Of a DNA stretch of 64,000 nucleotides, positions 17,673-52,195 are shown piece by piece. The DNA comes from Bacteroidota bacterium. Lineage in GTDB: Bacteria > Bacteroidota > Ignavibacteria > UBA10030 > UBA6906. Made by a program: the position numbers and the translations under genes. The notes below the pieces were generated by a model, which did not search any database, had not been told where the DNA came from, and saw only the letters and a list, made by a program, of their open reading frames with translations. Each line of letters starts with the position of its first letter. Position 1 is the first letter of the stretch. The stretch covers positions 77,169 through 141,168 of the forward strand of contig JAHBUR010000008.1 in the NCBI GenBank assembly GCA_019637975.1, in the 5' to 3' direction.

Positions 17673-19322
17673 TTAGCCCTTTATCTTGTGGGGATTCGCT
17701 TTGCCATTCTTCAGCAACGCAAGAGCGACATCAAGCTGGTTATCGCCATTCAGCGAAGCGGCAATTCTTCCTGTCTCGCCTTTGACGCGTGCCATCATTT
17801 CGATATTCAATTCCCGTTTGATGTGATCGCTGTAGCGGTCGAATCCGCGGTTCTTTTCTTTCTCGAGTGCGGCGGAAAGAAGATCGAGATCGGCGAGAAC
17901 TTCCTTGCTGTAATGCGACCGTTCGGCAATCTGCCGCAGCTCGTTCACTTTGCCGTCGCTCTCTTCCTTGTAGTCGAACTTCTGATCCTCGAGGTACTTG
18001 CGGAATTCCTTCAGCACAGTCTCGTTGACGCCCGTGAACTCCGCGGTCTTGCGGGCAGAGAAATACGTGTTGGCAAACCGGAAGAACAACGACTTCCGGA
18101 ACAACTCCCTCACCATCGGGCCGGGATCCGTTTCGGTGACGGAGGAATCGGGAGTAATGCCGCCGTATTCGTAGACAGTTCTTCCACCTTTCGTCTTGAA
18201 GGCACGTTTCAGGCTGTCGGGAACGGTGGCAAACACGCCGTTCCGATCTTTGTGCATGTAGTCGATTTCCTGAATACTCCTGCCGCTCGGAATGTAGTAG
18301 CGTGCCGTCGTGACCTTCAGTTGCGCCCCGTAATTCAGCGGCACAATTGTCTGAACCAGCCCCTTGCCGAAGCTTCGGGAGCCCACGACAATTCCCCGGT
18401 CAAGGTCCTGAATTGCGCCGGCCACAATTTCGCTTGCGCTCGCGCTGCTGCGATTGGTCAGCACAACCACCGGTACGTCCGGTAACTGCGGCTCTTCCAC
18501 CGAGTTGTATTGTTTCTCCGATTCAGGGCGGCGGCCCTTGGTGCTGACAATCAGATTTCCCTTCGGCACAAATTTGCTGACAACATCAACGGCGGCATCA
18601 AGCAAACCGCCGGGATTGCCGCGCAAGTCGAGGACCATACCTCGAATCTCCCCTTTCAGTTTCAGCTCTTTCAGCGATTGCCGGAGTTCATCGCCGGCCT
18701 TTCGGGAGAATCGCTCAAGCCGTACGTACGCGATGCCGTCGCCGACAAAATCCGCGTACGTCACATTCTTGACTCTGATATCTTCCCGCACGACAACAAA
18801 CAAAACCGGCTTGTTCTCGCCTTCACGCTGGATGAGGATTTTCACTTCCGTGCCCGGCTCACCGCGCATGTACGAGCGGACTTCGTTTGAGTTCTTATCC
18901 GCCACTTTGTCGCCGTCGATCTCGATGATTTTATCGCCGGGAATGATCCCTGCGCGCTGCGCCGCGTGTCCGTCCATCACGCTGATCACCTGAACAGAAC
19001 CGTCGCGTGCCCCGATTGTGACGCCGATACCCCCGTAGCGGCCGTTCGTCAGCATCTCGACTTCATCACCATCCTCCTTGTCGATGAACACGGTGTAGGG
19101 ATCGAGCGTGCCGAGCATCCCTTTGATGCCCGCTTGCATGAACTTCTCGGGATCCACTTCATCCACGTAGTTGAGAGAGATTTCCTTGTAGACGCGTCCG
19201 AAGACGTCGATTCCTTTGTTGATTTTGAAGAAGAAATCGGTATCCACCGGCGGGCCGAACCCGACGGAAAGAACAACCACGCCGATGATTGCTGCTGCAA
19301 ACAGGAAATACTTCTTTCGCTT
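17673..19322 (-). CDS. ctpA: S41 family C-terminal processing peptidase with PDZ domain
   Basis: N-terminal TM, PDZ (GGIGVTIGARDGSVQVISVMDGHAAQRAGIIPGDKI), S41 catalytic region (LVVLTNRSSASASEIVAGAIQD). Start at the ATG preceded by GAGGAGAG. Confidence 0.9.
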   Translation of the reverse strand, partial: KRKKYFLFAAAIIGVVVLSVGFGPPVDTDFFFKINKGIDVFGRVYKEISLNYVDEVDPEKFMQAGIKGMLGTLDPYTVFIDKEDGDEVEMLTNGRYGGIGVTIGARDGSVQVISVMDGHAAQRAGIIPGDKIIEIDGDKVADKNSNEVRSYMRGEPGTEVKILIQREGENKPVLFVVVREDIRVKNVTYADFVGDGIAYVRLERFSRKAGDELRQSLKELKLKGEIRGMVLDLRGNPGGLLDAAVDVVSKFVPKGNLIVSTKGRRPESEKQYNSVEEPQLPDVPVVVLTNRSSASASEIVAGAIQDLDRGIVVGSRSFGKGLVQTIVPLNYGAQLKVTTARYYIPSGRSIQEIDYMHKDRNGVFATVPDSLKRAFKTKGGRTVYEYGGITPDSSVTETDPGPMVRELFRKSLFFRFANTYFSARKTAEFTGVNETVLKEFRKYLEDQKFDYKEESDGKVNELRQIAERSHYSKEVLADLDLLSAALEKEKNRGFDRYSDHIKRELNIEMMARVKGETGRIAASLNGDNQLDVALALLKNGKANPHKIKG

Positions 19323-19354
19323 CATATATCTCTCCTCGTTATAGAAATGCAATT

Positions 19355-20005
19355 TCATTCCCCTGTGCTATGTCCTTCACTACGATTCGTTGCGGCCAAC
19401 TTTTTGTCAACGGCCAGCCGGATTTCCTTTTCAATTGTCTCAATCGAAAGCATCCCGTCAACAAGAAACCACCGGGGGTGGTCGCCGGCAGCAAGTGTAT
19501 GATAGCCGTGCCGTACACGCTCGTAAAATGCCCGCCCGGCACTTTCCATTCTGTCGAATGACAGACCTGCCTGTGTTTTCCTTCTCTCAATCTCTTCGAT
19601 CGGAATATCTACCAGAATCGTCAGGTCGGGCATCGTGCTTCCGGTTGCAAAGCGGTTGATGGTTCGTACATCGTCAAGATTGAGCCCGCGCCCGTATCCC
19701 TGATACGCGGTTGTCGAGTCGCAGTACCGGTCGCAGACGACAATTTCGCCGCGCTGCAACGCGGGATTGATGACTTGACGAACAAGTTGCGAGCGGCTGG
19801 CGGAGAACAGCAAAATCTCCGCCGCATCCGACATTTCAAGATGGTTCTTGTCGAGAAGGATGTCGCGGATCTTTTCCGATATGACGGTTCCCCCGGGTTC
19901 GCGGATAAAGTGGACGGTGTGATGCTGTTGTCTCAACCGTTCAACAAGCAGTTTTGCCTGTGTGGACTTGCCGCTGAAGTCGAGACCCTCAAAGCTGATG
20001 AACAT
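19355..20005 (-). CDS. tmk: thymidylate kinase
   Basis: ISFEGLDFSGKSTQ P-loop, DRY motif (VCDRYCDST), lid region. Start at the internal ATG (MFISFEG); the longest ORF reaches 20050. Confidence 0.9.
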   Translation of the reverse strand: MFISFEGLDFSGKSTQAKLLVERLRQQHHTVHFIREPGGTVISEKIRDILLDKNHLEMSDAAEILLFSASRSQLVRQVINPALQRGEIVVCDRYCDSTTAYQGYGRGLNLDDVRTINRFATGSTMPDLTILVDIPIEEIERRKTQAGLSFDRMESAGRAFYERVRHGYHTLAAGDHPRWFLVDGMLSIETIEKEIRLAVDKKLAATNRSEGHSTGE

Positions 20006-20189: not shown

Positions 20190-20888
20190 ATGGCAAAGCA
20201 AACCCGTCCGGCACGCCGCCTCAAGCCCGAATCTTCAATACCTCCCCGAGGACCTTCCGGCAACTTCCCTCACGATCAGGTGCTTACCATCAAGGAACAA
20301 CAAAAAGCCGAATCGCGTGCCGAGGATTCGCGTCTCATCCAGGCTGCGCTCAACGGCAATAACACCGCCTACAAACGGCTGATGAAGAAGTATCACGATG
20401 CCATTTACAATTTCATCTACAGAATGGTGCACGACAAGCACCAGGTCGAAGACCTGACCCAGGAAGCATTTATCAAAGCATTCGGATCGTTGTCGAGTTT
20501 CAACGAGGAGTACGCGTTCAGTACGTGGTTGTACAAGATTGCGACAAACAACAGCATCGACTATATCCGCAAACGAAAGCTGCAAACATATTCCATCGAC
20601 AAGCCCATTGAGGCAAAGGACAGCGACTATTCGTTCGAGTTGCCGGATGAATCATACGAGACCGACAAGGATATGATCAGCGACCAGCGGGCTCACATGC
20701 TGAACGAAGCCATCAAGAAGCTCCCCGAGAAGTATCGAAAAGTCATTCACATGCGGCATGTTGATGAGAAAAGTTATGAAGAGATTGCCGTCCAGCTCAA
20801 ACTCCCCATCGGAACGGTAAAAGCTCACATCTTCAGGGCAAGGGAGATGCTCTACAAATCCTTAAAAGACAGAATCAGGCATTATTGA
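20190..20888 (+). CDS. ECF-type RNA polymerase sigma-70 factor
   Basis: Region 2 (YKRLMKKYHDAIYNFIYRMVHDKHQVEDLTQEAFIKAF...FSTWLYKIATNNSIDYIRKRK). Region 4 HTH (HMRHVDEKSYEEIAVQLKLPIGTVKAHIFRAREML). A ~40-aa N-extension suggests the start may lie at an internal non-ATG codon. Confidence 0.85.
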   Translation: MAKQTRPARRLKPESSIPPRGPSGNFPHDQVLTIKEQQKAESRAEDSRLIQAALNGNNTAYKRLMKKYHDAIYNFIYRMVHDKHQVEDLTQEAFIKAFGSLSSFNEEYAFSTWLYKIATNNSIDYIRKRKLQTYSIDKPIEAKDSDYSFELPDESYETDKDMISDQRAHMLNEAIKKLPEKYRKVIHMRHVDEKSYEEIAVQLKLPIGTVKAHIFRAREMLYKSLKDRIRHY

Positions 20889-20950
20889 CGTTTGCCGCCT
20901 TGTTTCCATGCAACTAAACAGTCCCCCTGACGTAAGCTATACGTAGAGGA

Positions 20951-21832
20951 ATGAATATCTTACGTCAACATATTATCCCTTACCTGCTCTGTGCTGCGGT
21001 TGTTTCAACAACTCAGGTGTACGCGGGCGATTCCGGCAAGAAGGAAATCGGACGGACGACCGAGCGGGAAATCAACGTCGTGCTCTCCGCCGGTTTCGGA
21101 CGAATCAACCTCGAGCGGGGTGAAGCCGAGAAGGTGATTATTGTCGAGGGATATTCCAAGAAAGAATCATCCCTGCCGACAACGCTCAAATACGATATCC
21201 GAAACAGAGTCGGGTATCTTGATATTTCCATCGGCGAAGATCTTCAGGAATCAGGAAAGAAGAAGGGCACGTTCAAGATCTCCGGAATCGACGGCGGTGT
21301 TTGGGATCTCAAATTCAGCAACGCCATTCCGATTTCCTTTGATGTGGAGTTGGGAGTTGCAAAGGGGGCATTCGATATGACAGGCCTTCAGGTCAAGGAT
21401 TTCAAGCTCTCGGCCGGCGCAAGTGACGTGTTACTGGCGTTTGACAGTCCGAACACCGCGTCTATTGACGAGATGAGCATTGAGTCGGGAGTCGGCAAGT
21501 TTGTCGGACGGAATCTTGGCAACGCAAACTTCAAAAGCTTCCGGTATGAAGGCGGTGTCGGGGCTGCAACACTCGACTTTGCGGGTCTGAGCCAGAGCGA
21601 AGTTGACATCGACGTGGAAGTGGGTCTTGGAATCTGCACGGTGATTATTCCCAAAGATGCGGGGGCGCGTGTGTTCTTTGAGAAAAGCCTCGTCTCGCGA
21701 ATCGACTTCGATTCATCCATTCAAACGGCTGGCGACAATCAATACATCAGCGAAAACTACCGTACCGCAAAGAGCAGGATGAACATCCGCATCGATGCCG
21801 GCCTCGGCAAGGTACGAATCAAGACTGAGTAG
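20951..21832 (+). CDS. exported DUF4097-like beta-strand repeat protein, possibly associated with the upstream sigma factor
   Basis: Signal peptide. Repetitive G/V-rich beta-strand repeats (GAFDMTGLQVKDFKLSAGASDV...; ESGVGKFVGRN...). Sits 62 nt downstream of the ECF sigma gene. Confidence 0.5.
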   Translation: MNILRQHIIPYLLCAAVVSTTQVYAGDSGKKEIGRTTEREINVVLSAGFGRINLERGEAEKVIIVEGYSKKESSLPTTLKYDIRNRVGYLDISIGEDLQESGKKKGTFKISGIDGGVWDLKFSNAIPISFDVELGVAKGAFDMTGLQVKDFKLSAGASDVLLAFDSPNTASIDEMSIESGVGKFVGRNLGNANFKSFRYEGGVGAATLDFAGLSQSEVDIDVEVGLGICTVIIPKDAGARVFFEKSLVSRIDFDSSIQTAGDNQYISENYRTAKSRMNIRIDAGLGKVRIKTE

Positions 21833-21835
21833 GCC

Positions 21836-24415
21836 CTACCACAACGAAAATCCCGCCCACATGTGCGGGGTTGCGTACTCCGCTTTCCCGATCATCTCCA
21901 ACAACGATTTCCTGTACGCATTCTCCGCTGATTCTCCCGCAAGAAGATTCGTGTAGAAGAGTTCATTGAAGAACTTCTTCGCTTTGCGCGGGGGAACGTA
22001 ACTGTTGATCACAATATCCGAAGAGCCGTTCATGATGAAAATGCCCGGCACGGCTGGATGCAAACCTGCATCCGCCAAATTGGAAAACAGCACAATCCGG
22101 AACGGCGCTACCGAGAACATCTCTCCCAACCGGTGGAAATGCGTCGTGCCGTACGCCGCGCCTTCCGACAACACGAAAAACGACAGGCCGGGGCTTTCTG
22201 TCCGGTAGTCAAGTTCGAACGATGCGTGGAGAACATCTCCCTTCTCCTGACGCAAACGGCTGAGTGTAGCCTCCCGGTCGAAGAAGACCCGGGCTTCCTT
22301 GTAGAATGCCTTTACATCACGCACTTCATACTCTGCATCAATCGGCGTTCTCCCCCGATTCCCGAACCCGACAGCGACGGCATACGGGCCAAGCGGTTGT
22401 CGCTGCGTGCCCGCAGCGCCCGCCTCCACCAAATATCGAATCGAGAATCGTCGGAGTGCATACTCTCCGGTGTAGCCCTCGCTTTGCAGCGCGTGAACCG
22501 GAATGATCGGAAGACTGACAGGCATTTCCACAAACACGCTGTTTGCATCGGGTGCGTGAAGAACAATCGGGCGGACAAACACTGCATAGAGCTTCCCGGA
22601 AAGTTCCCGGAGCCGGCGCTCCCGCACGCGCAGATCGCTCTTGTTTGTTTCGGCATTCATCTGCATGAGAACGTCGAGATACTCGTTCATGAGGGAGAGA
22701 AGGGATTCTTTTCCGATGGCAGCTATCTGCTCACTGCTTTTCGATTTTGTATAGATGGAAATATGCAATGACTGCTTCGTCGGAATGTACGTCACGAGGG
22801 CGGCCCCGTCGGGAATCTGCTTCTGCACATCTGCAACGGAGGAATTGCGTGCAGTCAGCGCGGGACGGAGATTGGGGTAGCGGACGGCGAGCGAATCTTC
22901 CAGCTCAGAGGTACGGAGGCGGGCACTCTGCAGGTTGCTCTGTACTTCTGCAGCAAGTGTCCGCGATTCGGCGTGCAGCATGAACGCCTTCGCGAGTTGC
23001 CGCTCGGCCCCTAAACGTGCCGCCCGAACGCGGGCAAGATCTGCCAGTGCAGCGTTCAGCCGCGCATCCTGCGTCCTGATAGTCATTGAGACATAGTCGC
23101 GAAGAAGTCTGCTTTGCCTCTCCCTTTCGGCAGCGGCTGTCGCCTCCTCAGACTTCCCCAATTTGAACAATAGCTCTATCAAGGCATCATACGGCGAACC
23201 CTGGCGCGAGCCGTAGAACGTCGCTTCGCAGTCGTCAAACGCATCGCCGGCACGCGGCACCCACGACGAGTCGAACCGCTTCGCGGCGCTTTGATGGAGC
23301 GCAAGAGCTTCGTTCAGACGACCCTTGCTCTGTGCCAAGTTTCCCAGACATGCTCGCGCGTAAGCGTTTGCCCGCGGCAATCCCATGTAATCGAGCAACG
23401 CTATTGCGGCACTGTAGTTCGTTTCCGCCTCGGCATCTCCACTGGCAGCAAGACAGTGACCGAGCTGAAGCAGAGCATACGCCTCCGTCAGTCTGTTTTG
23501 CGAACCGATTGCGGTCCGAAGCGCGGCATTATAGAACTTGTGTGCTTCTTCGTAACGGTTTCGCCGCAAATGAATATTCCCGACTCGAAGCAACATCTCC
23601 TCTCTCAACGCGTCTGCGCCGCGGATCATATCCGCTCTCCGGATTCCTTCCGTGAACATCTGGAATGACTCCTTCTCGTTTCCCAACAGATCATAGACAA
23701 CTGCGAGAGAAAGGAAAGTCTGAATAGTCAGAAGCGTGTCTTGTGAACGGAGGGCAAAAGGAAGCGCGGCGGCAAAGTTCCTTACGGCGTCACCGTATTC
23801 AGAACGTGAGATGGATGAGTTTCCGTATGCGGAATGCACTTGCGCAAGCATCGCATCATCGCCAATCAGAGAACTCTCGTTCAACAACTCGCCGAGCAAA
23901 CGGCGTTCGAGAGCGAAATCACCGACGGCCCGCGAGACGGGAACCAGCTCCCATTTCATCAACCGGGCGCCCGTTGAATCGCCCAATGCCTCTTCGAAAC
24001 GATGCTGATCCATCAAAACAGAAAACGCCTGCCACTCTTCTCCCCGTACGCGATGCATGCCGGCTTGTCCGAAAATTGCAGCCCGGACACCGGACTTGTC
24101 GCCCGTACGCTGGTACAGATTTCTCGCCTGCGCAAACAACGTTACTGCGTTGTCAAACCCCGCTGCTGCCGAATACGTTTCGCCTAAGAGCAGGGATGTT
24201 TCCGCTTGTCCGGGAACATCGCCCGCCCGTTCATACAATCCCAGCGCTTCCTGAAGCAACCGTTTGCTCTCGGCATGATCGGCGCGGGCCATTGCCTGCT
24301 TTGCTTTTGCAAAGACTTCCTGTGCGCGGAGCGACACGGGGGCGTCATCGCGATTGCATCCCGAAGCAAAAGCAAGAAGGATCAAGATGAATCGATATGC
24401 GCGGAACATTCTCAT
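21836..24415 (-). CDS. TPR-repeat lipoprotein with C-terminal CHAT (caspase-like) domain
   Basis: Lipobox (FASGC). More than 8 TPR-like helical repeats. C-terminal blocks fit CHAT (LPIIPVHAL...RFSIRYL...DVLHASFEL...HMWAGFSLW). The Cys position of the catalytic dyad reads LFSNLADAG. Confidence 0.7.
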   Translation of the reverse strand: MRMFRAYRFILILLAFASGCNRDDAPVSLRAQEVFAKAKQAMARADHAESKRLLQEALGLYERAGDVPGQAETSLLLGETYSAAAGFDNAVTLFAQARNLYQRTGDKSGVRAAIFGQAGMHRVRGEEWQAFSVLMDQHRFEEALGDSTGARLMKWELVPVSRAVGDFALERRLLGELLNESSLIGDDAMLAQVHSAYGNSSISRSEYGDAVRNFAAALPFALRSQDTLLTIQTFLSLAVVYDLLGNEKESFQMFTEGIRRADMIRGADALREEMLLRVGNIHLRRNRYEEAHKFYNAALRTAIGSQNRLTEAYALLQLGHCLAASGDAEAETNYSAAIALLDYMGLPRANAYARACLGNLAQSKGRLNEALALHQSAAKRFDSSWVPRAGDAFDDCEATFYGSRQGSPYDALIELLFKLGKSEEATAAAERERQSRLLRDYVSMTIRTQDARLNAALADLARVRAARLGAERQLAKAFMLHAESRTLAAEVQSNLQSARLRTSELEDSLAVRYPNLRPALTARNSSVADVQKQIPDGAALVTYIPTKQSLHISIYTKSKSSEQIAAIGKESLLSLMNEYLDVLMQMNAETNKSDLRVRERRLRELSGKLYAVFVRPIVLHAPDANSVFVEMPVSLPIIPVHALQSEGYTGEYALRRFSIRYLVEAGAAGTQRQPLGPYAVAVGFGNRGRTPIDAEYEVRDVKAFYKEARVFFDREATLSRLRQEKGDVLHASFELDYRTESPGLSFFVLSEGAAYGTTHFHRLGEMFSVAPFRIVLFSNLADAGLHPAVPGIFIMNGSSDIVINSYVPPRKAKKFFNELFYTNLLAGESAENAYRKSLLEMIGKAEYATPHMWAGFSLW

Positions 24416-25921: not shown

Positions 25922-27256
25922 CTACCTTCTCCCTACTGCAACAATCCCCCTGTTATTAGCATACCCTACTGCAATGATAAGATCGCCTTTGATGTTCACC
26001 GAGTAGTAGATTCCCGATATTCCTGTTTGGTTGATGAAGTTGCGCCACGTGACACCATTGAAGTGGGTAATCTCGCCGAATGCCCCTGCAGTTACAACGT
26101 CATTGCGGCCAGCCCCCCGGATTGCGAGCGTGTAGTAGTTTGTGACTTCCCCGCGAGGATACAGTTTCCATGGCGTTGAGTGTTCAATATTTCGCTTGTG
26201 GTACACACCATCACCGACAACGTAATATGGTCCGCGAGGAACAAACCAGATTCCCCGCAAACTCCAAGGGAGCCCGTTATCAGGAATAGCCTCAACAGAC
26301 CCTGCGCTGACTTTGAGAACTTTCCTTCCTTCATTCTGATCAATCCTCGATGCCACTGCATAAACTTCCGTTGCTCCCGAAGTTGCATTCCGCACTCCCC
26401 AAATGTCATTGATCGGCAAAGTCGTGCCGCTCTCCAAGGGCTGCCATGTGTTGGCACCGCTCTGGTGCGCTATGAAACCACCATCTCCTACGGCGTACAG
26501 TTTGTCGCTGCTAACACCCCACATTTTGTTCACACCAACTCCGATGAAGATTGGGCTGATTGGAATTTCTTGGAACATTTGCCCGTTCCAGTGAAAATAT
26601 GGATCAAGCCACACATCATTGTGGGCAAGAGCAAACACAAATCGAATTGCTGGAGGTATTCCCTGATACGTTATCCGTCGAACTTGCCAAGTGCCAGTCC
26701 AAATTGCAAGATTATATCTTCTTGGATCAATCTGCCCTGTTGAATCTCTCAAATAAATCTCCCCAACGGCATATGCTAGCGTATCGTTGATGATGGCAAT
26801 ATCACTAAGCGTGCTGGCATTGCCGTCTCCCAACGTATCAATCTGCCACGTAAAGTTATGCGATGTCGTATCAAGCGTCGTGGAAACCACAGTGCCGCTG
26901 GTGTCGGTTATTGTGGTGTCTCGTATTCGTTGTGCTGCAAAGCGGTAGTTACGGTTGGGGAGGAGGTTTTCGACTATCAGGACGGAATCGAGACCATTGA
27001 TACGCGCTGTAAGCCTCATTACGCCATCTTGCGTGATTGCAATCGTTCGCGGCTCGTTCATATCTGTGAGAGAAACCTTCAGCCACGCTTCAGTGCAGGA
27101 GACATCTTCCACTGTTATGTGAATGGTCTGCTGGTACGGAGGGGGCGGCGGTGGCGGCACTACCGGCGGGTCCTTTTTGCAGCCCGCCGTGAGAAGAACT
27201 CCAAGATGTGCTGCTAACAGAAAGAAAAGAGAAAGAGGTTGCCGATGCATCTTCAC
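25922..27256 (-). CDS. lipoprotein with poly-Pro linker, FN3-like domain and beta-propeller (Ycf48/BNR-like blades)
   Basis: Lipobox LLTAGC, PPVVPPPPPPP linker, repeated blade motifs (YAVGDGGFIAHQSGANTW; YVVGDGVY; LIIAVGYANNRGIVAVG). GTG or ATG start. Confidence 0.5.
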   Translation of the reverse strand: MKMHRQPLSLFFLLAAHLGVLLTAGCKKDPPVVPPPPPPPYQQTIHITVEDVSCTEAWLKVSLTDMNEPRTIAITQDGVMRLTARINGLDSVLIVENLLPNRNYRFAAQRIRDTTITDTSGTVVSTTLDTTSHNFTWQIDTLGDGNASTLSDIAIINDTLAYAVGEIYLRDSTGQIDPRRYNLAIWTGTWQVRRITYQGIPPAIRFVFALAHNDVWLDPYFHWNGQMFQEIPISPIFIGVGVNKMWGVSSDKLYAVGDGGFIAHQSGANTWQPLESGTTLPINDIWGVRNATSGATEVYAVASRIDQNEGRKVLKVSAGSVEAIPDNGLPWSLRGIWFVPRGPYYVVGDGVYHKRNIEHSTPWKLYPRGEVTNYYTLAIRGAGRNDVVTAGAFGEITHFNGVTWRNFINQTGISGIYYSVNIKGDLIIAVGYANNRGIVAVGRR

Positions 27257-48528: not shown

Positions 48529-50030
48529 CTGTTCTCCCCGATAAATGATTTCACTTCTTCCCGATCATCAAAATGGGATTTCGTATCGCCGACAATCTGA
48601 TAATCTTCGTGTCCTTTTCCCGCTATCAGCACAATGTCGTTCTTTTGTGCCATCATCAGGGCTGACGAGATTGCCTTGCGCCGATCGGGTTCAATGGCAA
48701 TCTGTTTTCCCGCGACGCATCCGGCCTTGATTTCCGCGATGATATCCTCCGGATTCTCCCGACGCGGATTATCCGACGTAATCACCGTTACGTCGCTCAA
48801 TTCCGTGGCAATGCGTCCCATGTGGGGGCGTTTGCTTCTGTCCCGATTTCCGCCGCAGCCGAAGACGGTGATGATTCTGCCTGAATTCGACGAGCCGATC
48901 TCTCGAATGGTTCGAAGGCATTTCTCCAATGCATCCGGTGTATGGGCGTAGTCAACGATGGCGATCCATCCTTTCGGAGAGGCAAACTGCTGAAAGCGCC
49001 CGGGTACGGCTTTCAGACCGGCAACGCCTTGTCGAATCAAGTCATGGTCAATCGATAATGCGACGCCTGTGGTGTACGCCGCAAGAATGTTCTGCACGTT
49101 GAAACTTCCGATGAGTGTCGATTCGACATTGTATGCTGTATTCCGATAGTTCACCGTACACGATGTTCCGCTCAAGCTCATAGTCAGTCGACTCGCCGTA
49201 ACATCCGCACGTGTTCGAATGCCGTATTTCAGCGGTCGCGCCTTTGTATCGGCAATGATCCTCTCCCCGTCGCTGCTGTCAGCATTGGCGATTGCGGTCG
49301 CTTCAGCATCCAATTGATCGAACAGAATCTTCTTCGCCTTGAAATACTCATCTATTGTTTGATGGAAGTCGAGATGATCCTGTGTCAGGTTTGTGAAGAC
49401 GGCGGCTGTGAATGTCAATCCGAATACGCGACGCAATGCCAGTGCGTGTGACGAAACTTCCATTACCGCCGCAGTACAGCCCTTCTGCACCATCGTTGCG
49501 AGCAGCCTGTTCAGATCGGGTGATTCGGGCGTTGTATGTATCGCGGGAAACACTTCGTTGCCAATTCTGTATTCGATTGTTCCTATCAATCCGGTTTTCT
49601 CTCCGTTCGCTTCAAGAATCGAGCGGATCAAGTACGCTGTTGAGGTTTTTCCGTTCGTCCCCGTAACACCGACAAGCCTGAGCTTACGTGACGGGTGTTC
49701 ATAATAGTTTCCGGCTATCAACGCCAGCGACTTGCGTGCATCACTGACAACCACCTTGATCACACCCGCATGCATGAAGAATGCATCAGGCAGAGCTGCA
49801 TCGTTTTCCATCACAACAACTTTGGCACCCGCCGAAACCGCGTTGCCGATAAATGCATGGCCGTCAACGCTGCCGCCTCTGATTGCCACGAACAGATCGC
49901 CCGGCCCGACTGCCCGTGAATCATACTGGATGTTCCGCACCTCAACATCGTGTGTAACAACCATTTTCCCGTACATTGTCTGGAACATTTTCTGTACGGA
50001 AACGCCGTCAAGAAGGCGGGAAAGCGTCAT
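48525..50030 (-). CDS. murE: UDP-N-acetylmuramoyl-L-alanyl-D-glutamate--2,6-diaminopimelate ligase
   Basis: GVTGTNGKTSTAYL P-loop and DNPR motif (ITSDNPRRENP). Start ATG overlaps the ftsI TGA (ATGA junction). Confidence 0.9.
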   Translation of the reverse strand: MTLSRLLDGVSVQKMFQTMYGKMVVTHDVEVRNIQYDSRAVGPGDLFVAIRGGSVDGHAFIGNAVSAGAKVVVMENDAALPDAFFMHAGVIKVVVSDARKSLALIAGNYYEHPSRKLRLVGVTGTNGKTSTAYLIRSILEANGEKTGLIGTIEYRIGNEVFPAIHTTPESPDLNRLLATMVQKGCTAAVMEVSSHALALRRVFGLTFTAAVFTNLTQDHLDFHQTIDEYFKAKKILFDQLDAEATAIANADSSDGERIIADTKARPLKYGIRTRADVTASRLTMSLSGTSCTVNYRNTAYNVESTLIGSFNVQNILAAYTTGVALSIDHDLIRQGVAGLKAVPGRFQQFASPKGWIAIVDYAHTPDALEKCLRTIREIGSSNSGRIITVFGCGGNRDRSKRPHMGRIATELSDVTVITSDNPRRENPEDIIAEIKAGCVAGKQIAIEPDRRKAISSALMMAQKNDIVLIAGKGHEDYQIVGDTKSHFDDREEVKSFIGENR

Positions 50031-52195
50031 AGCGCAGCCGTTGCCGCCAGGTTCTTGGGCTCGCATCGCACGCCGATACGGGTACCGACTTTCACTTGTT
50101 CGCCTGCCCGTATTGATTGTGCTGCAACGGTGCCCGACCCTTCGACGCGTACATCAAGCCGGGCCAGTGTCAGCCGGTTAAGCGCACGACGCAATGAAAG
50201 TCCGCGCAAGTCCGGCACTATTGTGTAGTCACCCGCCGCTGTTGCCGTACTGCCGGTTGTGGCAAGCCTGATGGTCTCTCCTCTCGGCACCTTCATGCCG
50301 GGTGCGGGAGTTTGCTTGAGCACCACCGTTCCCTCTCCCGAGGTTTCCACGTTGAATCCTAACGAGGAAAGAACGGTTGTGGCTGCATCGAGGTCAAGGG
50401 TCCGGACATCGGGAGTCGCAACTTGTTCTTTGCTGGGTTCTGTTGGCTTGTGTTGCTGCGCGAACGTGGTTGATGACGTGACCATCTTTTCTGCGATGCC
50501 CTTCACAATCGGTGCGCTCGCAACGCCCCCGTAGTATCCCAATGTTTTCGGATTATCCAACATCACAAGACACACAACGTGCGGATCTTCCGCCGGAAAT
50601 ATCCCGACAAAGGATGCCGTGTAGCTTGACGTGGAGTATTTGCCGTCGAGGATTTTTCTTGACGTTCCGGTTTTACCGGCAACTGCAACCGCTTTTGTTT
50701 GAGCGCCTGTTGCCGTTCCTTTCTCTACAACCCCGCGCAAGAAACTCCGGACGGTATCGGCTGTCGACTTCGAGATCACTCTTCGAATTACCTGCGAGCG
50801 TACCTCGGACAGCACTTCGTTGTGCTCATTCAGAACCTGCTTGAGGATAAACGGCCTCATCAAAGTGCCGCCGTTTGCCAATGCTCCGTATGCTGCTACG
50901 AGCTGCAGCGGGGTGACGCCAACTTCGTAGCCGTATGCCATCGTGTTCAGTGTCGTGCGTGACCATTGAACCGGCTTCTTGAGTTGTCCGTTCACTTCAC
51001 CGGGCAGTTCGAGCCCCGTTGGAATACCGAACCCGAAGTTGCGCGCTGTCGCGTACATGCGTTCCGCGCCGACAAGATCGGACACCTTTGCCATCACGAT
51101 GTTGCTTGACAGTTCGATCGCATCGCGGAACGAAATTGTTCCGTATTTGTGCACGTCGGTAATCGGGGCGGGGCGGCCCCTCACCATGTATTTTCCGTTT
51201 TCCGCAAAGAATTTCTGTTCGGGGGTGACGATGTTGTACTCCAATGCAGCCGAAGCGGTCACAAGCTTGAACACCGATCCGGGTTCGAAGACGTCGGTAA
51301 TAATCCTGTTCCTGCTGGCGGCCGCGTCAATATTCTGATGGCGGTTGGGGTTGATTCCCGGGTAGCTCGCCATGGCAAGGACTTCTCCCGTTTTCGGCTC
51401 GAGCATCACCACCAGCCCGCTTTCGGCATTGTTGCGCTCCACGCCTTTGCGCAATTCTTCTTCTGCAATCGACTGATAGTCAAGGTCAAGTGTAAGCACC
51501 ACGTTGTTGCCGTTCTTCGGTTCGGCACGCGGGTAGTCAACCGTGGGGCGCTTGCGGCCGAGTCCGTCGCGCTGCATAATGATGTACCCGTTTTCCCCCC
51601 TCAACTCTTTGTCGAATGTCAGTTCGATGCCGCTCAGGCCGTTGTGATCGATGTCGGTAAAGCCGAGCACCTGTCCGGCGACGTGGTCGTAGTGGTAGAT
51701 GCGTTTCGGCTCTTCCGTTTCAATTAATCCGTCAAAGTCCTTTGCGTTGATGCGCGAGGAGGTTTGCGGACTTGCCCTCCGCTCAAGCCAGACGAAGCGC
51801 GAGTTCCTTTTTCGCAGCTTGGCAAGATGTTCTTCCCTCTTCGATTCCCCAAACACACGCGCAAGCCTGTCCGCTATCTTTCCTGCATCGTTCCCCACAA
51901 CCTTCGGGTCGGCCGCATATGAAACAGCCATTGTGTTCGAGACGAGAATCTTGCCGTTCCGATCATAGATATTACCCCGCGAAGCAAGCAACGGTACCTT
52001 GACTTCATATTGCTTCCTCGCTATCTCCTTATACCGCGCCGAATCGATAACTTGAATCTGCACGAGTTTCGCTGCCACAACTGCAAAGAAGACGAGAAGC
52101 ACTGCCTTCAGCAGCCGCATTTTCATCAACGAGTCACGAGCCGGATCCGGCTGTTCTGTGGGTTGCTGCGGAGTATTTCGGCTTCTGTTAAACAC
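50027..52195 (-). CDS. ftsI: penicillin-binding protein FtsI-type transpeptidase with two C-terminal PASTA domains
   Basis: N-terminal TM, dimerisation domain, transpeptidase motifs (SxxK region SVFKLVTASAALE; SSN; KTGT). The C-terminal ~130 aa contain two PASTA-like units (PDVRTLDLDAATTVLSSLGFNVE...; VPDLRGLSLRRALNRLTLARLDVRVEGSGTV...). Confidence 0.9.
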   Translation of the reverse strand: MFNRSRNTPQQPTEQPDPARDSLMKMRLLKAVLLVFFAVVAAKLVQIQVIDSARYKEIARKQYEVKVPLLASRGNIYDRNGKILVSNTMAVSYAADPKVVGNDAGKIADRLARVFGESKREEHLAKLRKRNSRFVWLERRASPQTSSRINAKDFDGLIETEEPKRIYHYDHVAGQVLGFTDIDHNGLSGIELTFDKELRGENGYIIMQRDGLGRKRPTVDYPRAEPKNGNNVVLTLDLDYQSIAEEELRKGVERNNAESGLVVMLEPKTGEVLAMASYPGINPNRHQNIDAAASRNRIITDVFEPGSVFKLVTASAALEYNIVTPEQKFFAENGKYMVRGRPAPITDVHKYGTISFRDAIELSSNIVMAKVSDLVGAERMYATARNFGFGIPTGLELPGEVNGQLKKPVQWSRTTLNTMAYGYEVGVTPLQLVAAYGALANGGTLMRPFILKQVLNEHNEVLSEVRSQVIRRVISKSTADTVRSFLRGVVEKGTATGAQTKAVAVAGKTGTSRKILDGKYSTSSYTASFVGIFPAEDPHVVCLVMLDNPKTLGYYGGVASAPIVKGIAEKMVTSSTTFAQQHKPTEPSKEQVATPDVRTLDLDAATTVLSSLGFNVETSGEGTVVLKQTPAPGMKVPRGETIRLATTGSTATAAGDYTIVPDLRGLSLRRALNRLTLARLDVRVEGSGTVAAQSIRAGEQVKVGTRIGVRCEPKNLAATAAL

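Follow-up and report, generated by a model that had tools for sequence, protein, structure and literature searches.

A lineage-wide family of predicted TPR-CHAT lipoproteins that lacks the catalytic His-Cys dyad

A gene on the reverse strand of a 64,000-nucleotide stretch of a Bacteroidota bacterium genome (contig JAHBUR010000008.1, positions 77,169 to 141,168; the whole stretch is referred to below as the window) encodes a TPR protein whose C-terminal CHAT domain has kept a caspase-like fold and, as judged from profile alignments, has lost both residues of the catalytic His-Cys dyad. The loss is common to relatives across Ignavibacteria-type bacteria, which points to a non-cutting binding or scaffold protein and not to a new kind of protease. 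We consider it likely that the protein is a periplasm-facing TPR-CHAT lipoprotein, a pseudo-protease that acts by binding, in a family in which the dyad is missing throughout.

Such a protein would no longer cut, its CHAT domain being a pseudo-protease; its TPR solenoid and its remodelled, now basic, domain surface would bind, within the cell envelope, a partner or ligand; and its role would be that of a scaffold, adaptor or sensor, as for other pseudo-proteases and TPR lipoproteins. What we infer here is a non-catalytic binding function and, with it, some partner. A search of the literature on inactive CHAT domains or pseudo-protease CHAT lipoproteins found no description of this family.

The CHAT fold and its catalytic dyad

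The original prediction placed a CHAT domain at 21836-22700, a span that corresponds to residues 572-859 of the 859-residue open reading frame (ORF). The sequence strings that it quoted are all present, DVLHASFEL at residues 727-735, RIVLFSNLADAG at 773-784, and HMWAGFSLW at 851-859, and the assignment has held up well. Pfam PF12770 matches residues 604-857 with 44.9 bits (E 1.4e-11), well above its gathering cut-off of 24 bits and over profile positions 2-285 of 289. A profile-profile comparison (hhalign) of 139 family domain sequences, each the representative of a 50%-identity cluster, with 76 canonical CHAT domains gave a probability of 99.2% and an E-value of 1.8e-19 over 238 columns; a narrow canonical hidden Markov model (HMM) covered only the C-terminal 67 query residues, and the full domain was aligned by hhalign.

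Predicted structure agrees with this assignment. An AlphaFold2 (AF2) model of the C-terminal 300 residues (pLDDT 78.5, pTM 0.82) was matched by Foldseek in the PDB to Csx29/TPR-CHAT of type III-E CRISPR (E about 3e-9) and to the periplasmic TPR-CHAT anti-sigma protein DdvA (6e-8), and also to SAVED-CHAT, separases and gingipain; a full-length model built from 72 family sequences reached pLDDT 93.6 and pTM 0.90. The fold is the caspase/hemoglobinase alpha/beta fold, and among known structures it comes closest to CHAT domains and separase. When the PDB was searched by sequence, the queries being the whole protein, its CHAT domain, a canonical CHAT domain and the family profile, nothing but TPR proteins or noise came back, and a canonical CHAT profile reached only the Cys region of separase (E about 0.5). 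Membership of the CHAT family, as a homologous fold family, is far above chance. The gene, the domain core and the two segments at which the dyad would be expected are located as follows.

21836..24415, reverse strand: whole gene for the TPR and pseudo-CHAT lipoprotein, 859 residues, stop codon at 21836-21838
21839..22540, reverse strand: caspase/hemoglobinase-fold CHAT core (residues 626-859), without the catalytic dyad
22211..22228, reverse strand: former His motif, H730-A-S-F-E734-L735 against canonical H-x-A-T-H-G, with Glu734 at the catalytic His position (hhalign)
22076..22084, reverse strand: former Cys motif, S778-N779-L780 against canonical S-A-C, with Leu780 at the nucleophile position (hhalign)

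The active-site motif of clan CD peptidases is His-Gly...Ala-Cys (PMC12445089), and the dyad sits where strands beta3 and beta4 end on their C-terminal side (PMC4357240). In the canonical set the corresponding H-x-A-T-H-G and V-L-S-A-C motifs are conserved at 92-100%. The profile alignment pairs canonical L-L-H-F-A-T-H-G with V-L-H730-A-S-F-E734-L735, so that His730 is the first, non-catalytic His of HxATHG and the catalytic His-Gly pair falls on Glu734-Leu735. Canonical V-V-L-S-A-C is likewise paired with V-L-F-S778-N779-L780, in which Ser778 is the ancestral Ser of LSAC, Asn779 stands for the Ala and Leu780 for the nucleophilic Cys. In the full-length model strands 728-733 and 774-779 stop directly before Glu734 and Leu780, and His730 lies in mid-strand. 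The protein has neither a His in a His-Gly pair at the end of beta3 nor a Cys in an Ala-Cys pair at the end of beta4, and on these alignments both dyad residues are lost, not the Cys alone.

The original prediction had asked for just such an alignment to PF12770 to fix the dyad, and the outcome revises it in part. DVLHASFEL had been read as a His region that keeps the catalytic His, which is mistaken since its His is the upstream one. The Cys had been thought to be substituted by Asn or Ser; it is indeed gone, but the residue in its place is Leu780, with Asn779 replacing the Ala and Ser778 inherited.

The same substitutions recur among the 139 representatives. Position 734 is Glu in 82, Asp in 29 (Glu/Asp 80%), Gln in 8 and His in none; position 780 is Leu in 62, Ile in 33 and Val in 17 (112/139, 81%), Gln in 11 and Cys in 2, and both members with Cys carry Asp, not His, at 734. 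The conservation of Asn and Ser in relatives, which the original prediction had proposed to compare, is high at both positions and absolute at neither: Asn779 is found in 98 and is replaced by Asp in 26, and Ser778 is found in 122 (88%). Position 730 is His in 110 (79%) and Gln in 23. In a small sub-group (P0096, P0101, P0125 and P0150) the former Cys motif appears as Y-N-C or Y-N-L.

The protein has no Cys at or near the nucleophile position, and no column of the family domain alignment reaches 20% Cys. The original prediction had allowed that the Cys might merely have shifted, and had named a conserved Cys elsewhere in the domain as evidence against its own reading; no alignment puts one there, so that this objection does not arise. 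The change also extends beyond the dyad, as a column-by-column comparison shows the loss of other canonical invariants, namely HE, S48, R56, D74, the GEG loop after the Cys, D243 and Q272. In a profile alignment the canonical Cys column pairs with a Cys that we take to be catalytic in Chaetomium (Ct) separase, the one in its LMGCSS motif.

It is hardly credible that the missing dyad is an artefact, whether of pseudogene decay, of faulty assembly or of an alignment in which a real Cys is overlooked. The protein does come from a metagenome-assembled genome, and its precomputed Pfam list lacks PF12770; however, its reading frame is unbroken over all 859 codons of 21836..24415, the AF2 model is of high confidence, a conserved Cys is found nowhere in the domain, and the same substitutions appear in 139 independent representatives from many assemblies, and it is these family data that exclude an artefact or pseudogene.

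Residues fixed in the family and the former cleft

The family has not only lost canonical residues but has fixed others of its own, among them those in two segments and a single His.

21950..21988, reverse strand: family-specific basic motif R810-K-A-K-K-F-F-N-E-L-F-Y-T822, from the HMM and hhalign alignments
22304..22339, reverse strand: most conserved segment of the family, D-A-E-Y696-E697-V-R-D700-V-K-A-F704, in 72 full-length members
22493..22495, reverse strand: His641, specific to the family and conserved in it as His at 94%, in the loop that follows the first strand of the core

The Asp of W-x-V-x-D, invariant (100%) in the canonical set, is replaced in the family by Arg810, which opens its best-conserved motif, R-K-x-K-K-x-F-x-E-x-F-Y-T (R810 94%, K814 88%, F816 99%, E818 90% and Y821 93% of the 139 representatives). 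In the 72 full-length members Y696 is conserved at 100%, E697 at 97% and D700 at 99% (97-99% for D700 across counts); E697 is the counterpart of a Glu that is invariant in the canonical set, and D700 is specific to the family. By hhalign His641 faces a canonical column in which Ala predominates (70%), preceded at 640 by the 97% Phe of the PFxAL motif. Tyr661, Tyr696 and Asp727 (90%) are further family-specific, near-invariant residues.

At the level of sequence the fixed polar set of the family is His641, Asp700, Asp727, Glu/Asp734, Asn/Asp779 and Arg810-Lys-x-Lys-Lys. These new polar and basic residues appear to lie at strand ends and in loops of the former clan CD cleft and, if they do, the cleft would have been repurposed and not merely have decayed. 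Given the switch from Asp to Arg and the RKxKK cluster, such a cleft would prefer an acidic ligand. Taken further, the former active-site face might have been rebuilt as a new site, one that binds an acidic ligand of the envelope or a client's C-terminal tail, or that forms a new catalytic centre, and so links the neighbouring extracytoplasmic function (ECF) sigma module and S41 protease described below; we regard this extended proposal as quite unlikely. If true, it would describe an Ignavibacteria-wide 'dead Craspase/DdvA' that works by capture instead of cleavage.

Strong conservation of polar residues is compatible with catalysis, and the protein might on that ground still be a hydrolase with a different apparatus, either Ser778 with His730 and Asp727 or Glu734, or a centre made of His641, Glu734, Asp700 and Arg810. 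Ser778 (88%), His730 (79%), Asp727 (90%), His641 (94%) and Asp700 (97-99%) are all well conserved. Ser778 and His730 are, however, 100% conserved in active CHAT domains beside the true dyad, so they are inherited and their presence needs no new function. His730 is Gln in 23/139, some members have Phe, Ala, Tyr, Val, Ile or Met in place of Ser778, His730 lies within a strand and not at its end in the AF2 model, and the invariants of the substrate site (the GEG loop, HE, R and D) are lost as well. In Craspase the corresponding Cys-to-Ser change, C627S, abolishes activity (PMC9729208). We therefore judge a hydrolase of this kind very unlikely, and the Ser-nucleophile variant entertained in the original prediction is weak on the same grounds, Ser778 being inherited and not invariant, its partner His absent and the Craspase precedent inactive.

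Lipoprotein architecture and relatives of the family

The preferred reading, that of a non-catalytic binding protein, also draws on the remainder of the chain, in which a TPR-like solenoid precedes the CHAT domain and an export signal precedes both.

24356..24415, reverse strand: signal peptide and lipobox FASGC, with Cys20 (24356-24358) as the predicted lipidated residue
23267..24346, reverse strand: TPR-like solenoid, residues 24-383, about 19 helices
22817..23242, reverse strand: helical linker, residues 392-533, with two long helices at 451-480 and 482-512 (DSSP, full-length model)
22556..22804, reverse strand: N-terminal sub-domain of the CHAT module, a three-stranded beta meander (538-565) and helices (569-620) (DSSP, full-length model)

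The N-terminus, MRMFRAYRFILILLAFASGC, fits the bacterial lipoprotein signal pattern (PROSITE-like) at ILILLAFASGC, and the signal helix spans residues 3-18 of the full-length model. Cys is found at the Cys20 column in 71/72 full-length members. The strict lipoprotein pattern is present in 68/105 long members, and most of the remainder still show a hydrophobic leader that ends in Cys. The protein is on this basis a bacterial lipoprotein, with a signal peptide, a lipobox and a conserved Cys, and its acylation is predicted. TPR repeats are assigned by Pfam to the N-terminal half, and the TPR-CHAT architecture, a TPR-like solenoid N-terminal to a CHAT domain in a single chain, is complete. A stretch comparable to the N-terminal sub-domain of the CHAT module precedes the CHAT domain of the canonical exported TPR-CHAT protein P0016, on a by-eye reading of the unaligned sequence. 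The picture of a TPR-scaffolded, lipid-anchored, CHAT-fold pseudo-caspase devoid of the nucleophilic Cys, put forward in the original prediction, is thus upheld by hhalign, the lipobox and the family counts.

Three Cys of the TPR region, C321, C356 and C396 (about 23228-23455), are invariant in 12 close orthologues. They were considered as a metal or disulfide site and rejected, their conservation in the wider family being only 55, 16 and 44 of 72. In this periplasmic protein they may make up a disulfide restricted to the lineage.

When 1.84 billion cluster representatives were searched with a profile, 145 clusters were recovered at E<=1e-30, almost all of 850-890 residues. Of 49 loci from species-representative genomes, all metagenome-assembled, the majority carry the label Ignavibacteriota, Ignavibacteria, Bacteroidota or, probably in a loose sense, Chitinophagales, and one that of Chlorobiaceae. 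The nearest of them (89% identity) bears the name of an uncultured Chlorobi bacterium, and two more distant representatives with a source name are both labelled Ignavibacteria. On sequence grounds the loss of the dyad is ancestral to a large orthologous family that is, in the sampled data, Ignavibacteria- or Bacteroidota-labelled, and the family is evidently under purifying selection.

The closest active counterparts are canonical exported TPR-CHAT proteins of Acidobacteria and others (P0015, P0016 and P0018), which are homologous over both the TPR and the CHAT regions (E 3e-6 to 6e-5). They share with the window protein the domain order, an N-terminal signal sequence, the Ser of LSAC, the first His, W853, Y821 and G797. 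They carry HxATHG, VLSAC, the GEG loop and W-x-V-x-D, whereas the family has E/D-hydrophobic, N/D-L/I/V, no GEG loop and Arg for Asp.

The full TPR-CHAT architecture is shared with separase, Csx29 and DdvA. Csx29 of Scalindua has an active dyad, H585/C627, and its C627A and C627S forms are dead (PMC9729208). Csx29 resides in the cytoplasm, bound and activated in Craspase by Cas7-11, whereas the window protein is an exported lipoprotein that has neither dyad residue and whose gene has no neighbours of a CRISPR or defence kind. DdvA is a periplasmic TPR-CHAT anti-sigma protein with a canonical dyad, H862/C907, and a transmembrane helix that joins it to a zinc-binding anti-sigma domain (PMC11506125). 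In the window the CHAT module instead forms a lipoprotein of its own that has lost the dyad, and the sigma operon is encoded on the other strand.

Precedents for dyad loss are found elsewhere in the caspase fold. Bacterial pseudo-orthocaspases have Tyr and Ser in place of His and Cys (PMC6426788), and FLIP(L) provides a human caspase-fold pseudo-enzyme (PMC7586951). These proteins resemble the family in that the fold is kept, both dyad residues are substituted, the substitutions are conserved lineage-wide and the proteins are thought to bind and not to cleave (PMC6426788; PMC7586951). They differ in having a C14 p20 domain and not a CHAT domain, Tyr/Ser and not Glu/Leu, a cytoplasmic location, and neither TPR nor lipid anchor.

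Gene neighbourhood and the place of the family

The CHAT gene is flanked by genes of the cell envelope as well as by housekeeping genes, of which two units may bear on its role.

20190..21832, forward strand: convergent operon of a SigW/RpoE-like ECF sigma factor (20190-20888) and an exported LiaF-like_C/toast-rack protein (20951-21832), assigned by Pfam and NCBIfam
17673..19358, reverse strand: Prc-type S41 C-terminal processing peptidase, with Pfam Peptidase_S41, PDZ and CtpB_N-like matches and TIGR00225 prc at 289 bits (cut-off 218.6 bits)

The toast-rack operon and the CHAT gene meet tail to tail, with 3 bp between the end of the one and the stop codon of the other (21832-21838), and the 3' ends of their transcripts probably overlap. 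Among related loci the convergent gap usually measures some 8-120 bp, and a small number have several hundred bp. The ECF sigma factor has 232 residues, with an N-terminal extension of about 45, and shows 65-94% identity across the lineage against 23-84% for the pseudo-CHAT protein. No anti-sigma ORF lies between the sigma and toast-rack genes; a distant locus (L054) has an ORF of 107 residues there.

In the window the CHAT gene follows thrC, and past the sigma/toast-rack operon come tmk, the S41 protease gene and the gene of a TauE exporter. Most of the 49 loci retain this order of downstream genes, L001 and L002 also, even where the CHAT protein shows as little as 27-30% identity, so that synteny spans an identity range of 27-89%; the S41 peptidase gene is syntenic in most of the loci. 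The arrangement is present in the distant member P0112, with one YaiO/TPR gene inserted, and the downstream neighbours are absent in the distant members P0070 and P0101. Upstream, 27 loci (L014, L017 and 25 others) have co-directional genes for RlmN, Adk and a glycerophosphodiester phosphodiesterase (GDPD), the median distance from the GDPD gene to the CHAT gene being 65 bp. The GDPD is of the cytoplasmic type, a DUF6588 protein is often nearby, and in the sub-lineage of the window ThrC takes the place of these genes.

The rest of the window is core chromosome, with the dcw cluster, Mfd, MnmG and ATP synthase. PADLOC gave only a generic TPR-repeat match, and the neighbours are housekeeping genes with no CRISPR or defence genes among them. 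Promoter and terminator scans around the CHAT gene found sites in numbers no higher than in shuffled controls, and a search for an active copy found no second CHAT gene in the 64-kb window.

The neighbourhood suggests a refinement of the preferred reading that would not contradict it, in which the protein is a non-catalytic adaptor or sensor of an adjoining envelope module and either presents substrates to the S41 protease or activates it, or else passes a signal from the envelope on to the ECF sigma/toast-rack operon. NlpI-Prc is a known case of a TPR lipoprotein that activates or loads an S41 protease. The window protein resembles the NlpI-Prc and LbcA-CtpA systems in being an envelope-anchored TPR lipoprotein whose genome also encodes a Prc/CtpA-type protease, here close by; it differs in that NlpI and LbcA have no CHAT domain, and no likeness to them beyond generic TPR was found in sequence or among the best 60 structural matches. 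A role as an adaptor of the NlpI/LbcA type, with the S41 protease as candidate partner, may therefore serve only as a working model.

The tail-to-tail junction followed by Tmk, S41 and TauE, kept in most loci although the CHAT protein has fallen to 27-30% identity, speaks for such a module, as do its survival in P0112 around the YaiO/TPR insertion and the placement of the S41 neighbour in the prc subfamily of C-terminal processing peptidases. A TPR lipoprotein, LbcA, activates CtpA (PMC8764530, PMC11021448), and the structural match DdvA is a periplasmic TPR-CHAT anti-sigma protein of an ECF sigma factor (PMC11506125). However, the block also holds the clearly unrelated Tmk and TauE, P0070 and P0101 lack these neighbours, and DdvA retains its dyad and is fused to an anti-sigma domain. 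The convergent orientation means that the CHAT gene and the sigma operon are not one operon. Upstream GDPD, Adk, RlmN or ThrC are conserved to an equal degree, and phylogenetic inertia therefore explains the pattern of gene order. We regard the synteny as mostly the inherited gene order of a housekeeping region; it leaves room for a link to the sigma module or the S41 protease and is no proof of one, and we consider the adaptor of a neighbouring module an unlikely refinement.

Several points weigh against the reading of the protein as a conserved, non-catalytic binder. Every family member comes from metagenome-assembled genomes, and the canonical comparison set is phylogenetically narrow, being made up of Acidobacteria-type CHAT domains. 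The catalytic-His column has no sequence anchor to a solved CHAT structure, as only the Cys column reached separase, and its placement thus relied on profile-profile alignment, the strand positions of the model and the published clan CD motif. Synteny holds with housekeeping genes (RlmN, Adk, GDPD, ThrC and Tmk) as much as with envelope genes. His641, Tyr696, Asp700 and Arg810 could in principle, to judge by their conservation, form another kind of catalytic centre.

Two further genes of the window may be recorded. One, at 50027-52195 on the reverse strand, encodes an FtsI-type penicillin-binding protein of the dcw cluster with two C-terminal PASTA domains, a feature more typical of Gram-positive penicillin-binding proteins and kinases. 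The other, at 25922-27256 on the reverse strand, encodes a predicted lipoprotein of 444 residues with a signal peptide ending in TAGC, a PPVVPPPPPPP linker and no Pfam or NCBIfam match.

CHAT domains are of current interest as switchable proteases in CRISPR, in cyclic-oligonucleotide-based anti-phage signalling systems (CBASS) and in sigma-factor signalling, and the present family adds to them a large, lineage-wide pseudo-enzyme branch in which the chemistry has been discarded and a new charged motif has been fixed. The finding is not categorically new and by itself opens no long-standing question. It cautions that not every 'CHAT domain-containing protein' should be annotated as a peptidase. 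For the envelope biology of Ignavibacteria it provides a lead, and the family may represent a natural example of a caspase-fold cleft that has been reused for binding in the envelope.

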